Source of the DNA: Marinobacter excellens HL-55
GTDB taxonomy: Bacteria > Pseudomonadota > Gammaproteobacteria > Pseudomonadales > Oleiphilaceae
DNA: 64,000 nt
NCBI GenBank assembly: GCA_001314845.1
Contig: LJZQ01000005.1
Location: 107,755 to 171,754 of the forward strand
Reading direction: 5' to 3'
Part shown: positions 9,651-41,206 of the stretch, piece after piece
Position numbering within the stretch: the stretch's first letter is position 1
Layout: every line of letters begins with the position of its first letter
The notes under the pieces: generated by a model
Database searches by the model: none
What the model saw: the letters and a program-made list of their open reading frames with translations, nothing else
What the model was told of the DNA's origin: nothing
Translations under genes and position numbers: made by a program

Positions 9651-9677
9651 TCAAGTTTCCGGCCGTCAGGCCGATAG
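9651..9677 (+). promoter_or_regulatory. sigma28 (FliA) promoter for parA-cheW-like-cheW
   Basis: TCAAGTTT-N11-GCCGATAG versus consensus TAAAGTTT-N11-GCCGATAA, 54 bp upstream of the parA GTG. Confidence 0.8.
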
Positions 9678-12432: not shown

Positions 12433-14709
12433 ATGAAAACACTCTATCCGAGGGCCTTCGAGGCCCTCAATGCGGTGAACCGGCAGGACTATGTCTCCGG
12501 TGCTGATATTGCCCCTTCCATTACCGGCCACTCCATTCCCCGGGAAGAAACCGTGCAGCACCTGCTGGCGCTTTGCCCGGAGATTGAGCCGGATCACGTG
12601 ATTATGCATGTAGGCGGCGGTTCCGGTTATCTCACAGCGGTACTGGCCGAGCTGGCGCATAGGGTGCTCTATGTTGATCGCAATCCGGTTGTTGCCGAGA
12701 AGGCTCGGGAACGATTCTTCAAGGGTGGTAAACATAATGTTGATGTGATTTCGGCGGCCGTCGATGAAGGTGTACCGGCGGATGAGCTCTGCGATTTGAT
12801 TATTTGCACTACCTTTCTGTCCGATCCTTCTGTGCTGATTACGTCTATGCGGGATGGTGGCAGGTTGGTGTGCCTCGAAGGCCGGGCCGGGCCGGTACCC
12901 AGTCTGGCCATGTTCCGGCGGACTGGCATCAAACTCGAAAGACTGCGAACGCTGGGTTGGGTGGATTTTAACCGTAATGCCGAGCAGATACTGATCGATC
13001 TCGGATTGGTTAACGACGCCGTACTTGCCGAGGCAAGGGCTGAGGCGGCAGGTAAGAACGAGCGGGTTCTGGACGTGGTTCGGCGCAAACTGAATCTTGA
13101 AGAGATAGATCTGTACCGATCTCTGGCTCAGCAGCGTGGCATGATCTTTACCGATGCCGACGAAGTCCTGGCCAGCCTTCAATCAGAGTTGTTCCGGCGC
13201 TTTTCCCGTACTTTTCTAGATCTGTCGCGGATTATACCCGTGGCGGAGGAAGATGGTGGCCTGACGGTGGTCACCGATGATCCTGACGTCCATACCGATC
13301 AGCTTGAGCGGCTCACGCCCAATCACAAAATCACTTGCTTGCTGGTAACGCCGTCGGACTTTCGCAGAATTTGGTCGGCGCTGGATCTGACCGTAAAAGG
13401 TAGTCACTTTGCTGCTGAACATGGCAAAACCCCGCCTCAGAATGATGCAAACCTTACCAAGAATTTGCTGGTTGAAGACCGGGGTAACAAAAATATAAGT
13501 CCTTACCTGGTCTCGGTCTATGAGGCAATCCTGCTGGATGCGGTCAGTGAAAAAGCCAGCGATATTCACATCGAACAATATGAGAATCGTGTTCGAATTC
13601 GTCTCAGGGTTGATGGTGATCTGCATGATTTGCCTCAGTACCAGTTGTCCGCCCGAGAGATTCGGGGCGTTATAAACGTTATTAAGCTGCGGGCGGAACT
13701 CAATATAGCCGAGCATCGTTTACCCCAGGGTGGCCGTTCCCGTCTTCAGCTGGGCGACACCTCATATGATCTGAGGGTTCAGACCCAACCGTCGTTACAC
13801 GGCGAAAATGCCATTATCCGATTGCTGCCCCAGACAGGTCGGGCTATGACCATCGCCGAACTGGGTATGTCGCCGGCCATAGGCGCCCGGTATCAGCGAC
13901 TGCTGGATAACCCGGCGGGCCTCGTGCTGGTGGTCGGGCCGACTGGCTCCGGAAAATCCACCACTCTCTATGCTGGTTTGCAGACTTTGGCTGATGATGG
14001 GAACCGTAAGGTGATCACGGTCGAAGACCCCATTGAGTACTCCATTGAAAATATTCAGCAGACTCGGGTGCGTTCGGAAATCGGTTTCAGCTTTGCTGAT
14101 TCCATGCGGTCATTCGTGCGGGAAGATCCTGATGTCATCCTCGTGGGCGAAATCCGCGATCAGGAGACTGCGCTGGAAGCGATTCGCGCGTCACAGACCG
14201 GGCATGTGGTGTTGTCGACGCTACATTGTAACGACGCCGTGGATTCGCTTCAGCGTCTTTACGATCTGGGTGTTCACCCGAACTCCATTGCTGGAGAGTT
14301 GCTGGCGGTGATTGCCCAGCGCCTGGCTAAACGTATCTGCAAGCACTGCCGTAAACCTGCCAGACCTGATCCGGCAATTCTGGCCGAAGTGTTTCCCGAC
14401 GGCGCTCCGGCCAATTTCCGGTGCTTTTCCGGTGCAGGCTGTGACAAGTGCAATGGCCGGGGGACCCAAGGTCGGGTTGGCATCGTCGAATATTTAGAGG
14501 TGAACACCGATATTCGAAACGCCATTTCCAGTCAGCCGCCAATTGGTGAGTTGCGTTGGCGAGCTCTGGACGCCGGTCTGGTTACAATGAGAGACAGTGC
14601 ATTGGACCATGTCATCGAGGGTATTATCCCGTTGTCGGAGCTGCCGCGCATTCTCCCCAGAGAGCGAATGGCGCCGGAAGTTCGTGGCGGCCGCAGGAGT
14701 CATGAATGA
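12433..14709 (+). CDS. Fusion protein: PCMT-like methyltransferase domain + MshEN/T2SSE_N-like domain + GspE/PilB-type traffic ATPase
   Basis: aa1-179 align by eye to Pcm (HVGGGSGYLTAVLAEL, VDR, HNV, GGRLV); ATPase has ASDIHIE, RVDG, QGGR, Walker A GPTGSGKST, Asp box TVEDPIEY, Walker B DPDVILVGEIRD, His box GHVVLSTLH, CxxC...CxxC. Confidence 0.9.
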   Translation: MKTLYPRAFEALNAVNRQDYVSGADIAPSITGHSIPREETVQHLLALCPEIEPDHVIMHVGGGSGYLTAVLAELAHRVLYVDRNPVVAEKARERFFKGGKHNVDVISAAVDEGVPADELCDLIICTTFLSDPSVLITSMRDGGRLVCLEGRAGPVPSLAMFRRTGIKLERLRTLGWVDFNRNAEQILIDLGLVNDAVLAEARAEAAGKNERVLDVVRRKLNLEEIDLYRSLAQQRGMIFTDADEVLASLQSELFRRFSRTFLDLSRIIPVAEEDGGLTVVTDDPDVHTDQLERLTPNHKITCLLVTPSDFRRIWSALDLTVKGSHFAAEHGKTPPQNDANLTKNLLVEDRGNKNISPYLVSVYEAILLDAVSEKASDIHIEQYENRVRIRLRVDGDLHDLPQYQLSAREIRGVINVIKLRAELNIAEHRLPQGGRSRLQLGDTSYDLRVQTQPSLHGENAIIRLLPQTGRAMTIAELGMSPAIGARYQRLLDNPAGLVLVVGPTGSGKSTTLYAGLQTLADDGNRKVITVEDPIEYSIENIQQTRVRSEIGFSFADSMRSFVREDPDVILVGEIRDQETALEAIRASQTGHVVLSTLHCNDAVDSLQRLYDLGVHPNSIAGELLAVIAQRLAKRICKHCRKPARPDPAILAEVFPDGAPANFRCFSGAGCDKCNGRGTQGRVGIVEYLEVNTDIRNAISSQPPIGELRWRALDAGLVTMRDSALDHVIEGIIPLSELPRILPRERMAPEVRGGRRSHE

Positions 14710-15809
14710 AACCCAGTAAAGCTACAATGCGCGCCGCTCAGCGGGAACCGGCCGAAGTAACCTACCGGGAAGAGCTCGATAGACTGATATCGTTGGATCC
14801 CGGTCCGGTCCCGCCCGGCTGGCAAATGTCGCCGCGTGGTGTCGAGAAATTTCTGCTTGGTGACGAAAAGCTGGGCATCGAACGCAAGTTCGTGGCCGAT
14901 CGTGCCATGGTAGTTCGCATTATTATTTCGCTCTGTACCAGCCGGGGCTGCTTGCTGGTTGGCGAGCCGGGCACGGCAAAGTCCTGGCTGTCGGAACTTC
15001 TGGCGGCGGCGATCTCGGGCACTTCCACTCTAACCCTGCAAGGGGGGGCGATCAGCCAGGTCAGCCAGCTCCTGTACAGCTGGAATGAAGCCCTCTTGCA
15101 CACCGAGGGCCCGACCCGAAAAGCTCTGGTGCCGACCCCCTTGCTTCGAGGCATGATGGAAGGGCGACTGGTCCGTTTTGAAGAGATTGCTCGATGCCCC
15201 CAGGCCCTGCAAGATGCCTTGCTTTCGGTTCTATCCGACAGAGTGGTGGTGATTCCTGAGTTGTCGGGTGACGACGGTGTCATTCTGGCTCAGCAAGGAT
15301 TCAATCTGGTGGCCACCTCAAATAGTGTCGACGAGGGCGTTCATCGCATGAGCGCTGCCCTTATGAGGCGGATGAATTTTGAGGAGATCCGGCCGATTCG
15401 TCAGCTGGCTGACGAGATGGACGTGGTATTGCGTGAGGTTGCCAAAGCCAACCGCTGCGCCGGCATTGAAGTTGCGCTGGAGCCGTCGGTGGTTGAAGTG
15501 CTGGTGACGCTGTTTCACGAGTTGCGTAACGGCCAGACCCTGGACGGCAGGAGCACTGACCGGCTTGCAGGGGCTGCGCTGTCAACGGCTGAGGCGGTCT
15601 CCGTTGCCCATGCGGCGAGCCTGAATGCCTGGTATTACGGTCGTGGGGCGATGACAGTGGAGCACCTGATGCATCACATCATCGGCTCGGCGTTAAAAGA
15701 TCAGCCAGACGACCGTCGCCGGCTGAAACACTATTTTGAAACCGCCGTTGCCCCGCGCAAAGGCGAACATTGGCAGCAGGTGTGGGCTCTGCGCTCACTG
15801 ATCAACTGA
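14706..15809 (+). CDS. MoxR-superfamily AAA+ ATPase (YehL-like)
   Basis: PPGWQMSP, Walker A GEPGTAKS, Walker B RFEEIARC, ATSN, SAALMRRMNF, STAEAVS; ATGA overlap with upstream gene. Confidence 0.82.
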   Translation: MKPSKATMRAAQREPAEVTYREELDRLISLDPGPVPPGWQMSPRGVEKFLLGDEKLGIERKFVADRAMVVRIIISLCTSRGCLLVGEPGTAKSWLSELLAAAISGTSTLTLQGGAISQVSQLLYSWNEALLHTEGPTRKALVPTPLLRGMMEGRLVRFEEIARCPQALQDALLSVLSDRVVVIPELSGDDGVILAQQGFNLVATSNSVDEGVHRMSAALMRRMNFEEIRPIRQLADEMDVVLREVAKANRCAGIEVALEPSVVEVLVTLFHELRNGQTLDGRSTDRLAGAALSTAEAVSVAHAASLNAWYYGRGAMTVEHLMHHIIGSALKDQPDDRRRLKHYFETAVAPRKGEHWQQVWALRSLIN

Positions 15810-16109
15810 CGGTTCGGCGGCGGGCCGGGCGTCTCCGGGTGTCCGGCCTCGAATGTGAAAGGCGAAGGCCAGTATTTCCGCTATCACTCTGTACAGCTCT
15901 TCCGGAATCTCTTCATTCAGCGACAACCGGGCCAGAATACCGGCCAGCTCGGCATTTTCGTAAAGTGGTACTTCATGCTCTCTGGCAATCCGGACGATTT
16001 CTTCGGCCAGCTCCCAGGTTCCGGTGGCTGAGATCAGGGGCGCGCGTTCGCCGTCGTATTTCAGGGCGACCGCTGCCGGGATGTGAGTGTTCGTCTGCTT
16101 TTCTGTCAT
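15795..16109 (-). CDS. Stand-alone FlhB cytoplasmic-domain-like protein (EscU/YscU/HrcU family)
   Basis: AVALKYD-GERAP...ATG...AEEIVRIAREHEVPLYEN..L..L....IPEELYRVIAEILAF; start set at the ATG overlapping the upstream stop. Confidence 0.9.
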   Translation of the reverse strand: MTEKQTNTHIPAAVALKYDGERAPLISATGTWELAEEIVRIAREHEVPLYENAELAGILARLSLNEEIPEELYRVIAEILAFAFHIRGRTPGDARPAAEPSVDQ

Positions 16110-17503
16110 GCCTTGGTGTCTACCAGTCGGTGTTCCAGTCGGGTCTGTGTTTGCTGCGGACTGCCCCGTCGGCAATCGAGATCTTTTACCTCAAGCCCCA
16201 GGTCAATCAGGCTTTGCCTGAGTAGCGGCAGTTCCTTATGCACCTGCCTGAGCGTGCTTTGCTTCTCTGCCCAGACTTGCGCGCTGACCGAGGGGTACCG
16301 GAATGACACATCAAAATGCAGCGGGCCCGCCTCATCCAGATCCATCGACAGGGATAGTCGCCATTCGCTGATGGCAGACCGATTTGCGCTGCGGCTGGAT
16401 TCGTCCTCTTGCGGATACTGTTCCAGCCGGAGTTGGGCAATTCTGGGTTCTTGCTGGGGCGTGACCCAGGGCAGTTCAACCAGCAAGGTATTGATGGGGG
16501 TTCCTGGCTCAGCGCCGGCCCTGGCGGTCAGAACCTGACTGTGCAACTGGTTAACCGTGATCCGGTTCAGCATGCCTGCCAGCAGGCGCAAGGTTTGTCC
16601 GACAGAGGCTGCTTCACTGCTGGCCGGAGACTGTGCCGACGTAAGTTGGGGGAACTGCAGCGGCGCTTGCACCAGTTCATGACTGGACAGGGGCGTTAAC
16701 CGGTTGAAGTGATCGGCTCCTTGCCCTTGTGTCGCCAGAAGCGTGCTGACAACGCGTGCCAGGGCTAGTTTCAGGTCGGCGGGGGGCGTGGTGGCCGATC
16801 CGGATTGCAGCAGTCGCGATTCGGCAAAAATACCGCTCTCTGACAACCATTGCCTGACTTGCTGGCCAGCGCCATCAGCCTTGCCGGCGCCCGGTGCCAG
16901 GCCGTCCGATTTAATTAGGCTGTTGAGTAGCACCTGCAGGTTTTCCCGAGCGCCGGCGGGCAGCGGCTGCGGCAGGGCTTGTGAAGGCAGTTGTCCGGGT
17001 TGGGGCTCGAGTTTTACGCCGGTGGTCATGGCTTGCAAGAGCTGGGACAACCCAGCCTGCAGGTTTTGTTGCCATGGCAGTCGTTGGGCCAGGGCGCGGG
17101 CAATGCCGGCATCCTGGCTTGGCGCCAGTTTGCCCATCAGCTGGAGTTCATTACCGGCGCGCATTACTTTGATCAAGTCACCGACGGACAGCTCCTGGGG
17201 CTTCGCCCCGGTGGACACCGCCAGGGTCTGGCCTCGCAATTCAAGAAGCAGTTCGTACCCGCCCCCTCTTTGCTGAAGAATGTCGGCCACCCGTGCCAGT
17301 GTGCTTTCATTTTTGGCAAGACGAAGCTGTGCAAGTTGTTGCTGGGCTGTTTGCAGTGGGTCAGGGCGTTGTGATGAGGTGCCGGCGTCACCGATGTTCG
17401 CGCCGGGCTGAGCGGCGCTGGTCCGGCCGGCAGAGGCGTCGGGCGTCCTGATCGGGGGCTGGCCTTCGTTCAGTTTCATTGTCATTGAATTGATGTCGGG
17501 CAA
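16106..17503 (-). CDS. FliK-like (hook-length-control C-terminal domain) protein; start uncertain (17503/17485/17479)
   Basis: Q/A/P-rich low-complexity body; C-terminal WRLSLSMDLDEAGPLHFDV...LRQSLIDLGLEVKDLDC. Confidence 0.78.
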   Translation of the reverse strand: MPDINSMTMKLNEGQPPIRTPDASAGRTSAAQPGANIGDAGTSSQRPDPLQTAQQQLAQLRLAKNESTLARVADILQQRGGGYELLLELRGQTLAVSTGAKPQELSVGDLIKVMRAGNELQLMGKLAPSQDAGIARALAQRLPWQQNLQAGLSQLLQAMTTGVKLEPQPGQLPSQALPQPLPAGARENLQVLLNSLIKSDGLAPGAGKADGAGQQVRQWLSESGIFAESRLLQSGSATTPPADLKLALARVVSTLLATQGQGADHFNRLTPLSSHELVQAPLQFPQLTSAQSPASSEAASVGQTLRLLAGMLNRITVNQLHSQVLTARAGAEPGTPINTLLVELPWVTPQQEPRIAQLRLEQYPQEDESSRSANRSAISEWRLSLSMDLDEAGPLHFDVSFRYPSVSAQVWAEKQSTLRQVHKELPLLRQSLIDLGLEVKDLDCRRGSPQQTQTRLEHRLVDTKA

Positions 17504-24907: not shown

Positions 24908-26638
24908 TCAATCTGACAGGCTCGCTGGATATAACGGCGCCAGTCCTGCTGAGGCTGACCTGGCCGCCGTTCGAGTTGCTCTCAGCCGCTCAAGGGCATT
25001 GATCAGGCGTTTGATTGCGTCATCGCCGACGCTGCTCCGGTGGTTCGAGAAAAGGCCTTCCTGGAACCTTCTCATGGCGTCGGCCAGGGCCGAATCACCA
25101 CAGATCTCGAACACATCCTCCAGAGTCACTAACTGTTGCTCCGGGTACCTGAGCCGAGCCCAACTCACCAATAATGCAGAACTTTGTCCTGATCCCGCCT
25201 GAATGGCGTCCTTGAGTCTGGTGAAGGCCTGCGTTTCGCTGGCATCGTCAGTATTCCCGGCCTGAGGCTGTGCGTCGCGCTGTCTTCGGGAGAACCACCA
25301 GAATGCCGCAGTCATAAGCCACAGTCCCGTCATAACGATCGTGCTGACAAACCAGAACGATGATTCATCGGTCGCCGGATTTTCAACGGCAATATCCGGT
25401 GTCTGATCCCCGGCAGGCGGCGTTACGTCTTCAATCGGAGGTGTAACGATCGCCCGGCCACCGTCTATCTTATAACGGCGCTCCGGTAGTTCAGCGTACT
25501 CAAGTTCGTCGCTCTCGGTGTTCCACCAAGGTATTCGAATGGCCGGCAGAACGGCGTCGCCAGCCTGCACAGGTACAAGGGCAGAGATTTGCTGCAGGGT
25601 GGAGCGCAGCCCGTCTGCGGTGGTCTCGGTGTTGCGGAGAGGTTGCTCCGGATAGCTTCGAATGGCATCTGGCACGGTTTGCGGCAGTGTCGGCAGTGCT
25701 TCGGACGGCAAGCCAAGAGCTTGCAGCGTCAACTTTCGGTTCAAGTTGGTGCCGGCGCTCAGCTCCCCGGTCGATGGCAAACCCTCCTCGCTCAGTGTCA
25801 TGCTTGCGGCGGGTAGCCAGGGCTGACCAGCCGGGTATTGGTCGGGCACGGGTTTTACCTGAACGTCGAACAATTGTTGGCGGTCGCGCAGGAATCTCAG
25901 CTGGCCCGAAGCATCCCGTGCCTGGCCTTCAAAGCTAATCGGGGCCAGGCTGAGCTCCCCCGGCTGCTGCGGAAAAATAGCATAGCGGCGTTCAACCACC
26001 CGGTAACGAGTACCGTTGCGATATCGGGCAAACTCACGCTGCTTGCCCAGGGATTCAATAATGGCATCGGGGTGCTCGGGTTCGGAGAGTTCGCCCCGGA
26101 TCAGGTTGCCTGAAAAATACAGCTGGATGGTCAGAATCAACTGCTCCTGAACATAGACCTCCGCTTTGTCTGCCGACAATTCGATAAAGCTGTCCCGGCT
26201 TGGGGCAGGTTGATTTGGCGGTGAGCCATCCAGCACCTCAACCGTCACCGGGCTGGAGGTGGAGTCCTGAAAGGTCAGCTCAGGAATGGTCAGGGTGCCG
26301 GAGCGGGTTGGGGCAAGCTGGTACGTCCAGGTGATCTCGCCAACCATTTCGTTGTTCACGGTTTGCACGCTGTACCGTTGATTCCGTGCAAGAATCTCGA
26401 ACTCAGGCTCAACTTCTTCGATGTTGGGCGAGGGCAGTTGCGACAGGTCAAAGCTGAACAAATTGGTCAGATTGATGTCTATTTTCATGGCGCCTTTGAC
26501 GGTCAGAGTCAGTATCTCGCCCTCGTAAAGCTGGGTGCGGTCCGGTTCAACGGTCAGTGCGTTGGCCCAGGCTGCAGGGGCTGTCATCATGAGCAGCAAC
26601 CACAGGCTGACGGCCGAGGTCAGAAAACGTTTTACCAT
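24908..26638 (-). CDS. batD: BatD-family protein
   Basis: Signal peptide, beta-rich repeats (AEVYVQEQLILT, RRYAIFPQQPG, IPWWN), C-terminal TM; last gene of MoxR-VWA operon; start set at 26638. Confidence 0.85.
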   Translation of the reverse strand: MVKRFLTSAVSLWLLLMMTAPAAWANALTVEPDRTQLYEGEILTLTVKGAMKIDINLTNLFSFDLSQLPSPNIEEVEPEFEILARNQRYSVQTVNNEMVGEITWTYQLAPTRSGTLTIPELTFQDSTSSPVTVEVLDGSPPNQPAPSRDSFIELSADKAEVYVQEQLILTIQLYFSGNLIRGELSEPEHPDAIIESLGKQREFARYRNGTRYRVVERRYAIFPQQPGELSLAPISFEGQARDASGQLRFLRDRQQLFDVQVKPVPDQYPAGQPWLPAASMTLSEEGLPSTGELSAGTNLNRKLTLQALGLPSEALPTLPQTVPDAIRSYPEQPLRNTETTADGLRSTLQQISALVPVQAGDAVLPAIRIPWWNTESDELEYAELPERRYKIDGGRAIVTPPIEDVTPPAGDQTPDIAVENPATDESSFWFVSTIVMTGLWLMTAAFWWFSRRQRDAQPQAGNTDDASETQAFTRLKDAIQAGSGQSSALLVSWARLRYPEQQLVTLEDVFEICGDSALADAMRRFQEGLFSNHRSSVGDDAIKRLINALERLRATRTAARSASAGLAPLYPASLSD

Positions 26639-28425
26639 GGTGTATCGCCCTCGTCCGTTGTGGTCTGGCGTTGTTGGTGCTGCTGCAGGAACTTGCGCTG
26701 GAGCAGGCCGCCCGGGTTGTCTGGTACGCGCCTCAGCCATTGCTCCTGTCCCTGAGACAGCGGCTGTTCAGAAATTTCGGCGGGTGCTTCGCTCATCCCT
26801 TCGCTACTCTCCTGTTCTGAGGCGTCAGGCTGGGACTGTGCCTCGGCTTCACTTTGTTCGTCCTCCGATTCTGCATTACCCTGGCCGGGGTTCGGTTGTT
26901 GGGGTTGATCGCCAGGAGATTCCTCGCTATCGCGTTCCGACCCTGAATCCCCGCCCTGTTGAGGGTCGCTGTTCTGGCCTCCAGACTCATCCTGTGACTC
27001 CGAACTCTCCTGGTCATCGGAACCACTCTGGGATTCCTGTTGCTGCTGTTGTTGCTCCAGCAGTTGTTTGACCAGCTCATAATTAATGCGAGCGTCTTCA
27101 AAATCCGGGTTTTGCTCCAGTGCCTGCTGATAGGCCTTCAGAGCGTTTTCCAGCTGACCTGAGCGGGCCAGGGCATTGCCCCGGTTGTAATGGCCTTCAG
27201 GTCCGGGGTGATCTGCAAAGACCGTCGCGGCTTCATCGTAGCGGCCGTCCCGATACATAGCGGAGCCGCGCCAGCCTGGTTGGCGCAACAGCTCTGCGGC
27301 CCGGGCCGGATCTTCATTGATCAGTTCAGGGCCCCTCTGATCTTCCCGTTGCCACAGGCTGGTCCAATCAAAGGCCAGCGCCGGCCGGGGCGTCAGCGCC
27401 AAAGGTAAAATCGTCAGTAGGCAGAACGCAAACGCACCTTTTTTCCAGCCCAGCAGTAACAGCGGTAAGGCCAGCCACAGCAGCCAGTAGCCGTCATCCT
27501 GCCATCGGTTGACGGTGATTCCGGTGCTGTCGTCTGACCAGTCCTCGCTGGCGTCCGGTTGCAGGCGCAGGCGCCGGATGTCCTCATCCCCGAGGGTCAG
27601 GGTATGGCTGTCGCCCCCGTTGTCACGAGCCAGACGCGCCAGGGCGTTTGGGTTGGCACGGGTAATCACTATGTTGCCGTTGTCGCGGATAAAGCCCCGT
27701 TTTGCCAGAGGTATCGGCCCGCCCTCGCGAGAACCCACAACCAGTGTGCTCAGATTATACGGCGTTGCTTGCAGATGGTTTGTGATGTCTGTGTGGTAGC
27801 TGCCGGGAATGTCATCCGCGATCAGCAAAATACGGCCCTGGCCGGGCGCGCCTTGCTGCAGAAGATTCACGGCCTGCTCAATGCCAAGGTCGGCACGATT
27901 GCCCTGGGCCGGCATGATGGTGGGTTCGAGCACGCTGAGCATAGCCTCGATAGTGCGCCTGTCCTCGGTCAGCGGCGTGACCACATGAGCATCGCCCGAA
28001 TACACCAGCAGTGCCGTCAGGCCGCCGTCGCGAGCGGCAAGGATGTCACGAATCTTGCGTTTTGCCAGGGTTAGCCGGTCCGGTTCCACATCGGTGGCGA
28101 TCATCGAGAGCGACAGATCCAGAACGATCACCAGGCTGTCTGCTGGTTGCTTCAGCGGCGTAGGCGCCTCGCGCCAGCTGGGCCCTGACAGCGCAAGAGC
28201 CAGCATGATAACGCCAAGAGTCAGCGGCATCCGAGGCGACACGATCTTTCGTTCGGCGTGTTGCTCGTCGCCCCGATGTCGGATTAGCGGCTTCAGCAAG
28301 GCAGGGGGAATGTAACGATCCCAGCCGGTGCCGCCTTGCCGCAGGCGTTGGTGCAGTATGAATACCACCGGCAACGCCAGCAGCAGTAACAACCAGAACG
28401 GGCGCATCAGGTGAAAATCAGCCAT
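26632..28425 (-). CDS. VWA + TPR membrane protein (BatB/BatC-like)
   Basis: MIDAS DLSLSM, TPR HYNRGNALAR, Q/E/S/D-rich tail, WLRRVPDNPGGLLQRKF; start set at 28425. Confidence 0.88.
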   Translation of the reverse strand: MADFHLMRPFWLLLLLALPVVFILHQRLRQGGTGWDRYIPPALLKPLIRHRGDEQHAERKIVSPRMPLTLGVIMLALALSGPSWREAPTPLKQPADSLVIVLDLSLSMIATDVEPDRLTLAKRKIRDILAARDGGLTALLVYSGDAHVVTPLTEDRRTIEAMLSVLEPTIMPAQGNRADLGIEQAVNLLQQGAPGQGRILLIADDIPGSYHTDITNHLQATPYNLSTLVVGSREGGPIPLAKRGFIRDNGNIVITRANPNALARLARDNGGDSHTLTLGDEDIRRLRLQPDASEDWSDDSTGITVNRWQDDGYWLLWLALPLLLLGWKKGAFAFCLLTILPLALTPRPALAFDWTSLWQREDQRGPELINEDPARAAELLRQPGWRGSAMYRDGRYDEAATVFADHPGPEGHYNRGNALARSGQLENALKAYQQALEQNPDFEDARINYELVKQLLEQQQQQQESQSGSDDQESSESQDESGGQNSDPQQGGDSGSERDSEESPGDQPQQPNPGQGNAESEDEQSEAEAQSQPDASEQESSEGMSEAPAEISEQPLSQGQEQWLRRVPDNPGGLLQRKFLQQHQQRQTTTDEGDTPW

Positions 28426-29437
28426 GGTCAGCCTCCCGGGGTTGGTGGCTGGCGCGCATACTGCCGAAAAGCTGTGCGGCCAGCATCGCCAGCCAAAGGG
28501 CGACGGCAGCGCCAGCGGGCAAAGCATAGAGCTCGGTCACCGGGCGGAAGAACTGGCCTTCCTGTTCAATCGGTTCAAGCTGGTTGATGCTGTCATAGAT
28601 CATTTCAAGTTCTGGCAAACTGCGGGCCCGGAAGTACCGCCCGCCGGTTTGTTGAGCCATTCGTGTCAGCAGGTTTTCGTCCAGATCCCGGGATGGATTC
28701 ACTTGTCGCGAACCAAGCAGGCCGCGTTGAACCATCGACTCGGCTCCGATGCCCACGGTATAGATGCGAACGCCGGCCGCCTGGGCGATCTCGGCGGCTT
28801 TGTCTGGTGCGATCTGCCCAGCCGTGTTGGCGCCATCGGTCAGCATGATGACGACGCGTTGTTGCTGCGGGCGATCGCGCAGGCGCTGAATCGACAGGCC
28901 GATGGCATCGCCGATGGCCGTTGCCCGGCCCGCCATGCCAATACCGGATTCATGCAGCAGGGTGCGCACGGTTTCACGATCGAAGGTCAGGGGCGCCTGC
29001 ACATAGGGTTCGGTGCCAAACAGAATCAGTCCCAGGCGGTCGCCCTCACGATAATCAATGAAGTCGTCCAGCACCTGCTTTACCGCTTGAAGGCGATTGA
29101 TGCCGCGCCCTCGAAGCACCATATCTTGCTCGTCCATGCTGGGCGATATATCTACCACCAGCATTAGGTCTCGGCCGCTGACCGGCATCTGAACCTGTTC
29201 CCCGACGTGCTGGGGTCGGGCAACGGCCAGCACCAGGCATAGCCAGGCCGCCAGCAAGATCAGTTGTCGCCACCGGGGTGTTGTCTGCCCTTGGGTGCTG
29301 ACACCGGGCAGTCCGGACAGCCAGTGGCCGACTGGAATCACCGGGGCATCCACTGCTTGCTTGCCCCGATTCCTGCGGATCATCAGCAGTGGCGCCAGTG
29401 CCAGCAGAAGCAACCAGGGATAGGCAAGGTTCATCAT
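28418..29437 (-). CDS. batA: VWA-domain protein BatA
   Basis: DISPSM, TAIGDAIG, LTDGANT. Confidence 0.88.
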   Translation of the reverse strand: MMNLAYPWLLLLALAPLLMIRRNRGKQAVDAPVIPVGHWLSGLPGVSTQGQTTPRWRQLILLAAWLCLVLAVARPQHVGEQVQMPVSGRDLMLVVDISPSMDEQDMVLRGRGINRLQAVKQVLDDFIDYREGDRLGLILFGTEPYVQAPLTFDRETVRTLLHESGIGMAGRATAIGDAIGLSIQRLRDRPQQQRVVIMLTDGANTAGQIAPDKAAEIAQAAGVRIYTVGIGAESMVQRGLLGSRQVNPSRDLDENLLTRMAQQTGGRYFRARSLPELEMIYDSINQLEPIEQEGQFFRPVTELYALPAGAAVALWLAMLAAQLFGSMRASHQPREADHG

Positions 29438-29901
29438 GACCGTGCCTCCAGCCAGGCAGCAGCAAAGCTCAGAGCCTGAGCTGGGTCTGCAGTCGGTCGC
29501 GGTTGCCAGGTGCTGCTCACCAAGGCCTCCACCACCGGGCGCGACGCAATGCGATCATTTGGGGCGGTGGCCAGGAGGAAATCAACCCACTGACTGCCAG
29601 ACATGGCTTCCGGGTTGCGATCCGGGTAAGCCTGCCGGGCAACGCGTTTGAGCAGGGCGTTGAGTTTGCAGAACCAGTCTGGCTCTTTACTGACAGAGCG
29701 CTCCAGATCAATCAGGATAGTTTTGGCTTGACGTTGCCAGAGGGTGTTGCGTCTACGCCTGTGCCAGAGCAAAGCCAAGACGATAACAATGATGAGCACG
29801 AGCGCGGCAACCAGCCACCAACCCGGCGCGGGCGGCCAAAAGCCTCCGGACTCGGGGAGCTGAATGTCACGCAGCTGGGCCAGCGGATCCTGTCCGTTCA
29901 T
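29434..29901 (-). CDS. DUF4381-family protein
   Basis: LAQLRDIQLP...WPPAPGWW + TM; start set at the ATGA overlap (29901). Confidence 0.85.
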   Translation of the reverse strand: MNGQDPLAQLRDIQLPESGGFWPPAPGWWLVAALVLIIVIVLALLWHRRRRNTLWQRQAKTILIDLERSVSKEPDWFCKLNALLKRVARQAYPDRNPEAMSGSQWVDFLLATAPNDRIASRPVVEALVSSTWQPRPTADPAQALSFAAAWLEARS

Positions 29902-30836
29902 CCGATGCGACCTCCCGGGCCGAGCAGCAGACGCAGGGCGGCGGCTGGGTCTTGATGGGTCATAACGGTTGCAGCCTGTACGCTGGCAGTGCGAAAACAC
30001 TCAGCAAGCTGTTGCTCATGGCTGGCTACTTTGTCGCGCCAGGCTTTTTGAAACGAAGGGTTGGACGCATCAAACCAGATGGGCCCGTCCGGGCCGGCCA
30101 CCGCAAACTTGCCGCTGGCCGGCAGTTCGCTTTCCAGCGGGTCAAGTATCCGGATGGCGCTCACGCTGTTATGGCGTGCCAGCGCACCGAGCAGGCTGGT
30201 CGTGGAATCGGACAGATTTATGAAGTCACTGATGACAAAAATTCGGCTACCGGTATGGGCAACTCGTCTGGCTTCTGCCAGGGCGGTATCCAGTCGGTGG
30301 ATTGACGAGCTTCCGTTGGCCGGCGGGGTGTCTGCTTGGTGCTGCAGATTGGCGAGCTGATCAAGCAGTCGCAGCACGGATTTTCTGCGCCGTGCAGGGC
30401 GCATTACATCAAGCTCCTGGCCGTTGAAAATCAGTCCGCCAACCTGATCGCCGGCCCAGAGTGCGAGCCAGGCAAGAATGGATGTGATCTGGGCGCAGCG
30501 GACCTGCTTGTAGGCTCCAGTGCTGGCAAAAAAAAGCGTTGGCCCCAGATCCGCAATCAGCAGCACGGGTCGCTCCCGCTCTTCTTCATACAATTTAGTG
30601 TGGGGGGACTGACGCCGCGCAGTCACTCGCCAGTCGATACTGCGAATGTCATCCCCTGGCTGGTACTGACGAACCTCAGAGAAGGTCATGCCCCGGCCTC
30701 GTTGACGGGATTGCCGAAGGCCGGACTGTCGCGACCGAACCGGGCGTGCCGAAGGGAGTTTGAGCGCTTGTGCATCGGCCTGCAGACGAACAAGGTCCTG
30801 CAGAGTGATATGGGTGGCGGGGGATGGGTTAGCCAT
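29898..30836 (-). CDS. DUF58-family protein
   Basis: EVRQYQPGDDIRSIDWRVTAR, KLYEEERE. Confidence 0.92.
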   Translation of the reverse strand: MANPSPATHITLQDLVRLQADAQALKLPSARPVRSRQSGLRQSRQRGRGMTFSEVRQYQPGDDIRSIDWRVTARRQSPHTKLYEEERERPVLLIADLGPTLFFASTGAYKQVRCAQITSILAWLALWAGDQVGGLIFNGQELDVMRPARRRKSVLRLLDQLANLQHQADTPPANGSSSIHRLDTALAEARRVAHTGSRIFVISDFINLSDSTTSLLGALARHNSVSAIRILDPLESELPASGKFAVAGPDGPIWFDASNPSFQKAWRDKVASHEQQLAECFRTASVQAATVMTHQDPAAALRLLLGPGGRIG

Positions 30837-38064: not shown

Positions 38065-39150
38065 ATGTCTGCACTGACCAACACACACGACGTCCTTGTT
38101 CGTAACCTTGAGCTGCTGCATGGGCAGGTTGCGCTGCTGGGCGTTTCCGATCCGGCGGTTCTCTCACATTGTGGCACCACCGGACTGGCGATGAGCGAGC
38201 ATGCCGGCATATTCGAGGTGCTGGCCCAGGTGCCCGGATGGCAAGCCTGCTATGGTTATGACGCCCACCAGCTTGAGCCCGCAAGTTACGATACCGTTGT
38301 AGTTTTTCTTCCCAAAGCCCGAGCCGAATTAACCTTGCGCCTGACCATGGCCCGATTTTTGGGTCGGGCCGGGGCCCGGCTGGTGATGATCGGCGAGAAA
38401 AAAGAAGGAATCGCCGGTGCCGTCAAGCAGTTTCAGGTGATTGCCGATAACGCAGCCAAAGTGGACAGCGCCCGGCATTGCCAGGTTTGGGTCGGCGGCA
38501 ATCAGCAGCCGCTGGCCGAGTTCGTGGTGGCAGACTGGATAGGCTGGACCGATGTGGATTGTGCCGGTGTAGGGTGTTCGGTTGCAGGAATGCCTGGAGT
38601 GTTCAGCGAGGGTTCGCTGGATGGTGGCTCCCGTTTGCTGCTGCAGACGCTTTCTGAGAAGCCCCTTAAAGCCGACCGAATTCTGGATTTTGCCTGTGGT
38701 GCCGGTGTCATTGGTACCTGGCTGCACGCCGCCAGACCGCAATCGACGCGTGAGGGTCTGGTTGTCGATGGCGTTGAGGTTCAGGCGCAGGCGGTGATGT
38801 GTGCCGAGGCGACCTACCGCAAAGCGGGCGTTAACGGGCGAATATACTCCTCGGATGGCCTTGCCGGCCTTGAGGGGAGATGGCAGGCGGTGGTGAGCAA
38901 TCCTCCGTTCCATAGTGGCGTAAAGACTGATACCTCGATGACCGAGCAGTTTCTTCGGGAAGTGGCTCAGCACCTGGAGCCTGGTGGCGAACTGCGCCTG
39001 GTCGCCAACAGTTTCCTGCCCTATGAAAGTGAGATGCAACGGCAGATTGGCGCGGTCGAGAAGCTGGCTCAGGATCGAAGATTTACCGTATACCGGGCGT
39101 TCCGTCGCGGTGGTGCTGGCGTTTTGCCCATAAAAAAGCCCCTGGGGTAA
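38065..39150 (+). CDS. rsmC: 16S rRNA m2G1207 methyltransferase RsmC-like
   Basis: [52 protein letters not shown]. Confidence 0.88.
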
Positions 39151-41179: not shown

Positions 41180-41206
41180 TCAAGAAAGCGGGAGCAAGGC
41201 CGATAC
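41180..41206 (+). promoter_or_regulatory. sigma28 (FliA)-type promoter for the hypothetical membrane protein gene
   Basis: TCAAG-N14-GCCGATAC, same spacing as the 9651 site; 33 bp upstream of ATG 41240. Confidence 0.65.

Follow-up and report, generated by a model that had tools for sequence, protein, structure and literature searches.

Domain architecture of the fusion gene

We analysed a 64,000-nucleotide stretch of the Marinobacter excellens HL-55 genome (assembly GCA_001314845.1, contig LJZQ01000005.1, positions 107,755 to 171,754 of the forward strand), here called the window, and focus on two overlapping genes on its + strand. The first, at 12433..14709, is a fusion gene of 758 aa which, by open reading frame (ORF) call, Pfam and motifs, joins a domain derived from protein-L-isoaspartate O-methyltransferase (PCMT, Pcm or PIMT) to a MshEN/GSPII-like domain and a T2SSE ATPase of the extension type. 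The second, at 14706..15809 (+), encodes a partner of 367 aa that is a MoxR-class AAA_5 (NorQ/CbbQ-like) AAA+ ATPase according to Pfam, PDB and AlphaFold2 (AF2)/Foldseek comparisons. The ATG of the partner overlaps the TGA of the fusion gene (ATGA), and an AGGAG lies 6 nt upstream.

Three Pfam domains are recognised along the fusion protein: PCMT (PF01135) at aa 7-147 with 46.5 bits against a gathering threshold of 20.3, MshEN at aa 249-317 with 43.7 bits against 23.1, and T2SSE (PF00437) at aa 360-737 with 368 bits. An AF2 model covering aa 1-352 was built on 16 relatives (predicted local distance difference test, pLDDT = 84.5; predicted template modelling score, pTM = 0.77). Its top 15 PDB matches in Foldseek are all isoaspartyl methyltransferases (TM-score on the target 0.69-0.71), including 3lbf, 4l7v and the human 1i1n, and E. 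coli 3lbf is matched with E = 3.9e-12. Ranked next after these PIMTs is 8pdk, the GSPIIB (MshEN) domain of Thermus PilF with bound cyclic di-GMP (c-di-GMP).

The initial annotation of this locus, made from the sequence, had read the protein as a fusion of a methyltransferase fold and an extension-class traffic ATPase, and the Pfam scan, the AF2/Foldseek comparison and the invariant ATPase motifs described below confirm this architecture. The PCMT/PIMT-fold domain occupies aa 1-180 (12433..12972, +; Pfam, AF2, Foldseek and residue alignment to 4l7v and 3lbf) and does score as a class I methyltransferase fold of the PIMT type, both above gathering in Pfam and in the Foldseek ranking. It is followed by a MshEN/GSPII-fold domain at aa ~183-330 (12979..13422, +; Foldseek to 8pdk and the Pfam match) and by a variable linker at aa ~331-355 (13423..13497, +), recognised by its low model confidence (pLDDT < 50 over aa 329-352) and by a mean pairwise identity of just 23%. 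The ATPase core, composed of N2 and the C-terminal domain, spans aa 356-745 (13498..14667, +; Pfam, motifs and tree), and the protein ends in a conserved tail, (E)RMAPEVRGGRR (14668..14706, +; clade alignment). The fusion is thus made up of a PCMT fold, a MshEN fold and an intact extension-type T2SSE ATPase.

Distribution and origin of the fusion

A word-indexed search with aa 1-350 as query recovered the same length and domain set in about 100 clusters at 90% identity, most of them from Marinobacter, M. nauticus among them, and others from Pseudomonas sp. TTU2014-080ASC, Wenzhouxiangella marina and metagenomic relatives. Among 61 Marinobacter species genomes, 26 possess the N-terminal half within open frames of 756-801 aa; the frame has no internal stop in 25 of these, and the remaining one has an internal TAG. 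Because the fusion recurs independently in so many assemblies, an assembly chimera, which the initial annotation had considered as an objection, is ruled out and the fusion is genuine.

An exhaustive HMMER search with the same residues over 1.84 billion cluster representatives added about 27 divergent full-length clusters (710-805 aa, 23-33% identity), in which the match spans PCMT into MshEN. All ten of the divergent clusters that were scanned contain PCMT (38-118 bits) and T2SSE, and eight of them contain MshEN as well. By genome matches, relatives of the family are found in Bradymonadales, Brocadiaceae, Myxococcales/Polyangiaceae and Cellvibrionales, and the family hence reaches beyond Marinobacter. 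A class-wide sample of 400 gammaproteobacterial genomes gave no additional strong match, the only matches there being at the level of canonical Pcm (<=58 bits), and the fusion is therefore rare.

Two proteins from Polyangiaceae/Myxococcales metagenome-assembled genomes (MAGs; loci L034 4830-6572 and L036 4830-6539) belong to the same ATPase clade and have no PCMT domain. They begin with a canonical RLGDLLV-type MshEN motif and nest among the fusions in the tree. As these PCMT-less Myxococcota members with an intact MshEN fall inside the clade, the sequences suggest that the PCMT domain was added onto an MshE-like ancestor and was now and then lost. In Ectopseudomonas mendocina (L018 5715-8004), the fusion is broken in two, with PCMT on one piece of 120 aa and MshEN-T2SSE on another of 565 aa. 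This copy is probably decaying, since besides being split it has a transposase and a HigB toxin gene in its surroundings.

Full-text literature searches found no description of the architecture or of the gene pairing, which agrees with the remark of the initial annotation that no PCMT-PilB fusion has been characterised, and the paper on MshEN (PMC5013675) makes no mention of a PCMT fusion. Public records give only automatic names, either 'ATPase, T2SS/T4P/T4SS family' or 'protein-L-isoaspartate O-methyltransferase'. All parts of the protein come from known superfamilies, while the clade as such is distinct and uncharacterised and stands out by its unusual input domain and its obligate partner.

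The partner ATPase and the two-gene cassette

The partner matches PF07728 (AAA_5) with 99 bits against a gathering threshold of 22, and in the PDB its sequence matches nothing but AAA modules of midasin and 2r44, a MoxR protein. On NCBIfam it shows only faint similarity to GvpN and MadB and stays below every equivalog cut-off. Its AF2 model (pLDDT 81.7) is nearest to NorQ in Foldseek (1.3e-07), followed by CbbQ, MoxR (2r44), BchI and MCM, and these matches place the partner in the helix-2-insert clade of AAA+ proteins. PF07728, these structural matches and the invariant motifs of the partner (Walker A GEPGTAKS, FEE at Walker B, an ATSN sensor and an RR finger) are all shared with the MoxR-class AAA_5 proteins such as NorQ, CbbQ and GvpN (9qh4, 6l1q and 2r44). 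Unlike these, the partner has a conserved N-terminal extension of about 75 aa, is coupled to a PCMT-T2SSE gene and has no adjacent VWA (von Willebrand factor A) gene of the NorD/CbbO type. MoxR-class AAA_5 ATPases normally work with a VWA protein, and no VWA gene adjoins the pair in any of the nine loci examined.

A Bat-type operon, encoding BatD, a TPR-VWA protein, a VWA/BatA-like protein and DUF58, is present in the window at 24908-30836 (-). Operons of this type normally accompany a MoxR ATPase; this one lies 9 kb downstream on the other strand and appears unrelated to the gene pair.

The partner and the fusion occur in exactly the same 26 Marinobacter genomes, in each of them side by side. 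Six other genera have the partner too. It follows the fusion immediately, in most cases with the 4-bp overlap, in Wenzhouxiangella, Pseudomonas sp., a JGI metagenome contig, Porticoccus and a Cellvibrionales MAG, and likewise in Halopseudomonas salina, Ectopseudomonas mendocina and a Porticoccaceae MAG, where searches that started from the partner recovered the pair. The surrounding genes are otherwise unrelated between lineages. Since the fusion and its partner stay together while all other neighbours change, the conserved unit is a self-contained cassette of two genes, 3.4 kb in length.

Two Bradymonadales loci have another gene downstream of the fusion (L040 7274-8389 and L041 7148-8284), with products of 371 and 378 aa that are 39% identical to each other and have no Pfam match. 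The 371-aa product was considered as a possible AAA_5 homolog and is not one, and the gene is conserved between the two loci.

The PCMT-derived domain keeps its cofactor motifs and has lost the catalytic serine

Conservation was counted in 28 relatives that belong to the same clade as the fusion protein. Motif I of the methyltransferase fold is GGGSGY (aa 61-66) in the window protein, and its glycines G61, G63 and G65 are kept in 28/28. The acidic post-I residue (D/E82; D82 in the window protein) and G143 of motif III are likewise invariant (28/28 each). Cofactor or ligand binding by the domain is hence plausible in this clade, judging from the retained motifs.

The catalytic side of the domain is different. 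At aa 31-36 the protein reads 'SGHSIP' where Pcm has 'GQTISQP', and in the alignment to V. cholerae 4l7v and E. coli 3lbf 'tGHSIPreetV' stands over 'qGQTISqpyiV', placing Pro36 at the Ser of T-I-S. This proline occupies the catalysis-related Ser position (human Ser59/60) in all 28 relatives. The Asp of the GDG motif is kept in only 15 of them and is replaced by Ala in the window protein. Thr57-Ser59 line the substrate site of PIMT (PMC8275801), and the PIMT Ser is related to catalysis, as Ser60Ala PIMT paralogues are inactive (PMC7565475). The domain also misses the NCBIfam equivalog cut-offs for Pcm by a wide margin (49.8 vs 159 for TIGR00080 and 67.5 vs 188 for NF001453). Two canonical pcm genes are present elsewhere in the genome, at C48:62336-62995 and C7:36627-37283; their products of 219 and 218 aa have the motifs GQTISQPY and SQTLSQPY, and in the genome scan they score 218 and 202 bits on Pfam compared with 48 for the fused domain. 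The fused domain therefore shares with Pcm/PIMT (PF01135; 3lbf, 4l7v, 1jg1 and 1i1n) the fold, the order of motifs, the GxGxGY of motif I, the post-I acid and motif III, and differs in its fusion to a 580-aa ATPase, in the invariant Pro for the Ser of T-I-S-x-P and in the unconserved GDG.

Because an invariant Pro replaces the catalytic Ser of T-I-S, isoaspartyl repair by the fused domain seems unlikely. The initial annotation had speculated that the motor might unfold damaged proteins so that the fused domain could repair them, and apart from the PCMT ancestry of the domain we see nothing that speaks for such a coupling. The lost Ser, the unconserved GDG, the missed equivalog cut-offs and the two canonical pcm genes all speak against it; moreover, T2SSE ATPases are not known to work as threading unfoldases. 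We regard this explanation as barely credible. Its companion proposal, regulation of the motor by the status of S-adenosylmethionine (SAM) and S-adenosylhomocysteine (SAH) or by damaged peptides, fares better in its first half, which the invariant motif I and post-I acid make plausible, and is poorly supported in its second.

Methylation of another substrate would be a different matter. The domain may still be an active carboxyl O-methyltransferase whose methylation is coupled to ATP-driven remodelling, with the AAA+ partner, the conserved C-terminal tail of the motor or a client protein as candidate substrates. Invariance of motif I, of the post-I acid and of G143 would be expected to fit such an enzyme, and the region that corresponds to the substrate site of PIMT carries a clade-specific invariant patch (R17, F20, D25, G32, I35 and P36). 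In addition, distant members of the family keep 'TITPP', which is near to the canonical 'TISQP', and score up to 118 bits against PCMT. The Pro at the catalytic Ser position and the unconserved GDG Asp argue against it, however, and several clades have lost motif I outright and yet keep the fusion. We hence consider catalysis on a new substrate possible, though unlikely.

The best PDB sequence match of the domain is the PIMT-like subunit of complex I from Paracoccus denitrificans (8qby chain t; 7.4e-10), which, at an rmsd of 2.8 Å, also superposes more closely than any other of the listed top Foldseek matches. This subunit gives a precedent for a PIMT fold built into another machine, although it is a separate polypeptide of an unrelated complex and is not fused to an ATPase.

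The MshEN domain has probably lost its c-di-GMP input

Both of the 24-residue c-di-GMP motifs are degenerate in the fusion protein, with NAE and RVL where RLG is expected, so that the Gly of position 3 is replaced by E and L, respectively. A motif scan with a relaxed form of the MshEN motif, taken from PMC5013675, was matched by 0/28 clade members. As the Gly is missing in both repeats and not even the relaxed motif is matched, the c-di-GMP input of MshE/PilF-type ATPases has probably been lost in this clade. In several distant fusions one or both of the c-di-GMP repeats are canonical, and the motif is present in the PCMT-less clade members too.

The resemblance to the MshE/PilF-type ATPases (PMC5013675; 8pdk) therefore lies in the MshEN/GSPII fold ahead of an extension-type T2SSE ATPase with a Cys4 site, and in the RLGDLLV motifs that the PCMT-less Myxococcota proteins keep. 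The present clade differs in the lost RLG Gly, in the additional PCMT domain and in its separate position in the tree (100/100, see below). Furthermore, the fusion gene is accompanied by a MoxR partner and not by pilin genes or a platform gene of the mshG/pilC type.

A separate clade of extension ATPases without filament genes

The ATPase motifs named in the initial annotation are all present, and they are invariant or nearly so in the 28 relatives: Walker A (G502-T510), Asp box (528-535), Walker B (565-576), His box (589-598) and the Cys4 zinc site (C636/C639/C670/C673). The assignment to the extension class rather than to PilT is also borne out. Among solved structures, the ATPase half matches PilF, GspE and PilB with 290-322 bits and PilT with only about 115 bits, and in the maximum-likelihood (ML) tree it falls among the extension ATPases, apart from PilT/PilU (100/100).

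In the same tree, where the extension-ATPase references are the paralogs of this genome only, all PCMT fusions form one clade (100/100, branch length 1.29) apart from the PilB, GspE, MshE-like and TfpB-like proteins of the genome. The clade contains 12 gammaproteobacterial fusions, 19 divergent fusions and the two PCMT-less Myxococcota proteins. A phylogeny against PilB, MshE and GspE had been proposed earlier, and the fusion groups with none of them. In agreement with the tree, the NCBIfam equivalog cut-offs are missed (413 vs 676 for PilB, TIGR02538; 414 vs 630 for GspE, TIGR02533; 353 vs 850 for TfpB), while the GspE (715 bits) and PilB (840 bits) of the same genome pass theirs. The genome also encodes an MshE-like ATPase with the canonical RLGDLLV motif and a TfpB-like ATPase. 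The signature RLPQGGR is found in 28/28 clade members, where the four paralogs have RxPQDGR, and the RGGRR part of the C-terminal tail is confined to the clade with the AAA_5 partner. The ATPase hence represents a distinct and previously undescribed clade and is not PilB, GspE, MshE or TfpB. With PilB and GspE it has in common the zinc site and the full set of nucleotide-binding boxes; the altered signature, the extra conserved tail and the subthreshold scores set it apart, and so does its position outside any pilC/pilD or gsp operon.

Platform genes of the T2SSF (GspF/PilC) type adjoin only the PilB, GspE, MshE-like and Tad ATPases in this genome, and no platform or pilin/pseudopilin gene was found near the fusion in the window flanks or in eight other loci. 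The intact extension-type core, the retained N1/GSPII-like domain and the lack of a platform of its own could indicate that the fusion is an alternative extension ATPase which docks on an existing platform, such as PilC of type IVa pili, GspF of the type II secretion system or MshG of the MSHA pilus. Its long separate branch and altered RxPQDGR motif do not favour this idea, which also leaves the obligate MoxR partner unexplained. Moreover, the MshE-like ortholog is found in 21/26 cassette-positive vs 21/35 cassette-negative Marinobacter genomes, and the TfpB-like ortholog in 21/26 vs 29/35; each is thus missing from five of the 26 cassette-positive genomes. This absence of strict co-occurrence led us to reject a dependence on MSHA-like or TfpB-like systems, and docking on a borrowed platform appears distinctly improbable.

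The TfpB-like ATPase of this genome (C7:19239-20465, -) has an open frame of just 463 aa and no adjacent T2SSF gene. It is about 600-650 aa in other Marinobacter and 617 aa in a near-identical genome (G450), and the copy in M. excellens HL-55 may be 5'-truncated or frameshifted.

Genomic surroundings and expression in Marinobacter

In the window, the cassette follows a flagellar/chemotaxis cluster of flhF, fleN, fliA, cheY, cheZ, cheA, cheB, motA and motB, continued by a parA-like gene, a cheW-like gene, cheW and DUF2802. The fusion starts 26 bp past DUF2802, with no terminator-like site between the two. On the 3' side, genes on the other strand converge on the cassette: a small FlhB C-terminal-like gene (MTEKQTNTHIPAAVALKYDGERAPL...) at 15795-16109 (-), which overlaps the 3' end of the AAA_5 gene by about 15 bp, and a FliK-like gene at 16106-17503 (-) that precedes it, and then the ccm operon. 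A + strand ORF at 15770-16225 is the antisense shadow of the FlhB-C-like gene and probably not a gene.

A pattern scan for sigma-28-like promoters (TCAAG-N13-16-GCCGATA) gave three matches in the window, with 0.04 expected. One of them, at 9651..9676 (+), lies upstream of the parA-like gene, the cheW-like gene, cheW and DUF2802, and the other two are at 38423-38449 and 41180-41205 (+). Given the 26-bp gap, the lack of a terminator and this upstream motif, it is plausible that the cassette is also transcribed by read-through from the 9651 promoter motif, and it could thus be co-transcribed with a FliA-dependent che operon.

In three Marinobacter genomes that lack the cassette, DUF2802 directly abuts the flhB'/fliK-like genes and ccmA, and the cassette is hence a clean presence/absence difference inside a conserved region. 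Other Marinobacter carry the cassette at this site as well (G441). In a further genome (G422 C1:1136637-1139122), a 40-aa duplicate of the 3' end of DUF2802 lies directly upstream of the fusion, while the full DUF2802 gene is about 2 kb away from this duplicate. The arrangement points to an insertion that was accompanied by a duplication at the cassette boundary.

This setting raises the question of whether the Marinobacter cassette is a flagellar or chemotaxis accessory, belonging to a FliA-dependent che/mot operon and acting on the assembly of flagella or chemoreceptor arrays. The tight spacing after cheW-DUF2802, the convergence on the flhB'-fliK-like genes, the sigma-28-like motif and the corresponding position in G441 would all be in line with it. 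However, 35 of the 61 Marinobacter species have no cassette and yet keep the full flanking cluster, and in seven other genera or lineages the pair occurs in unrelated, non-flagellar neighbourhoods. As the pair sits in the flagellar context only in Marinobacter, we rejected this context as a general key to function, and the accessory role itself is in our opinion improbable.

The patchy, accessory distribution and the variable genomic location could also be expected of an anti-phage or conflict system, here one composed of a methyltransferase-like domain and two NTPases. The split Ectopseudomonas copy beside a transposase and a HigB toxin gene would agree with this, as would a weak PADLOC match to mad2 (49.8 bits) that concerns the methyltransferase part only. 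No PADLOC system model is matched, though, and the other PADLOC matches are to the P-loop only. The neighbourhoods consist mostly of housekeeping genes, and the mean identity of 80% in the ATPase and the stable position in Marinobacter are unlike typical defence islands. A defence function is thus very improbable.

A putative ligand-gated motor with a MoxR partner

The interpretation we favour, with moderate confidence, is a self-contained module of two ATPases in which a PIMT-derived domain would serve as an input for a ligand of the SAM/SAH type, a MoxR partner would assist, and the target would be unlinked or novel. The product of the first gene is a zinc-binding, presumably hexameric motor of the PilB/GspE type and extension class, standing in a clade of its own. 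Its PCMT-derived domain, which keeps the cofactor loop and the ribose-binding acid, would most likely bind SAM, SAH or a related ligand and act as an input or scaffold that gates the motor. We see it in this role and not as a repair enzyme because the Ser is lost (and, in Marinobacter, GDG too) and the cofactor loop is kept. The product of the second gene is a translationally coupled AAA+ remodeller of the MoxR class that lacks the usual VWA protein and would act on or with the motor. The pair constitutes an accessory cassette, carried by some Marinobacter species (26/61) and placed in differing neighbourhoods in other genera. Since it brings no dedicated platform, pilin or secretin genes, its target is probably encoded elsewhere or novel.

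Several observations weigh against this interpretation. We infer SAM binding solely from motifs, and contact between the two ATPases solely from the coupling and shared occurrence of their genes. Of the folded parts of the protein, the PCMT domain evolves fastest (mean pairwise identity 44% vs 80% for the ATPase), and motif I itself has decayed in some distant clades; this would suit a structural element no less than a ligand sensor. The invariant patch of D25, G32, I35 and P36 could be a new substrate site and hence indicate real catalysis. As for the partner, its Foldseek match to NorQ has a low TM-score (0.35-0.48), and it was detected only in the gammaproteobacterial branch; since the Bradymonadales branch has a different conserved downstream gene, the partner is not universal to the superfamily.

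A bolder version of the favoured interpretation would place a PilB-type motor outside the world of type IV filaments. With its dedicated MoxR AAA+ partner, the motor would make up an independent machine in the cytoplasm, gated by SAM/SAH and thus by methyl-cycle status, or coupled to carboxyl methylation, that remodels or assembles a target belonging to neither pili nor secretion. We put this forward as an unlikely but conceivable scenario.

Implications

To our knowledge, the extension ATPases of the PilB/GspE type have been studied almost solely as motors that drive pili and the pseudopili of secretion systems, and the small molecule known to act on them is c-di-GMP. Here, a well-conserved clade of extension ATPases has no filament genes beside it, and its c-di-GMP input seems to have been swapped for a domain derived from a repair methyltransferase; in Gammaproteobacteria, this PCMT-T2SSE clade is moreover locked to a chaperone-type ATPase of the MoxR class. 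The function is amenable to testing, since the cassette has just two genes, Marinobacter is cultivable and tractable, and nature provides cassette-less sister species with otherwise identical flanks. If the N-terminal domain binds SAM or SAH, the status of the methyl cycle would be linked to a hexameric motor, and if it methylates a client, a new pathway of carboxyl methylation would be revealed. Should the pair indeed work as a machine unrelated to filaments, it would provide the first case of an extension-class T2SSE ATPase that serves no filament and senses a metabolite through an input domain derived from PIMT.

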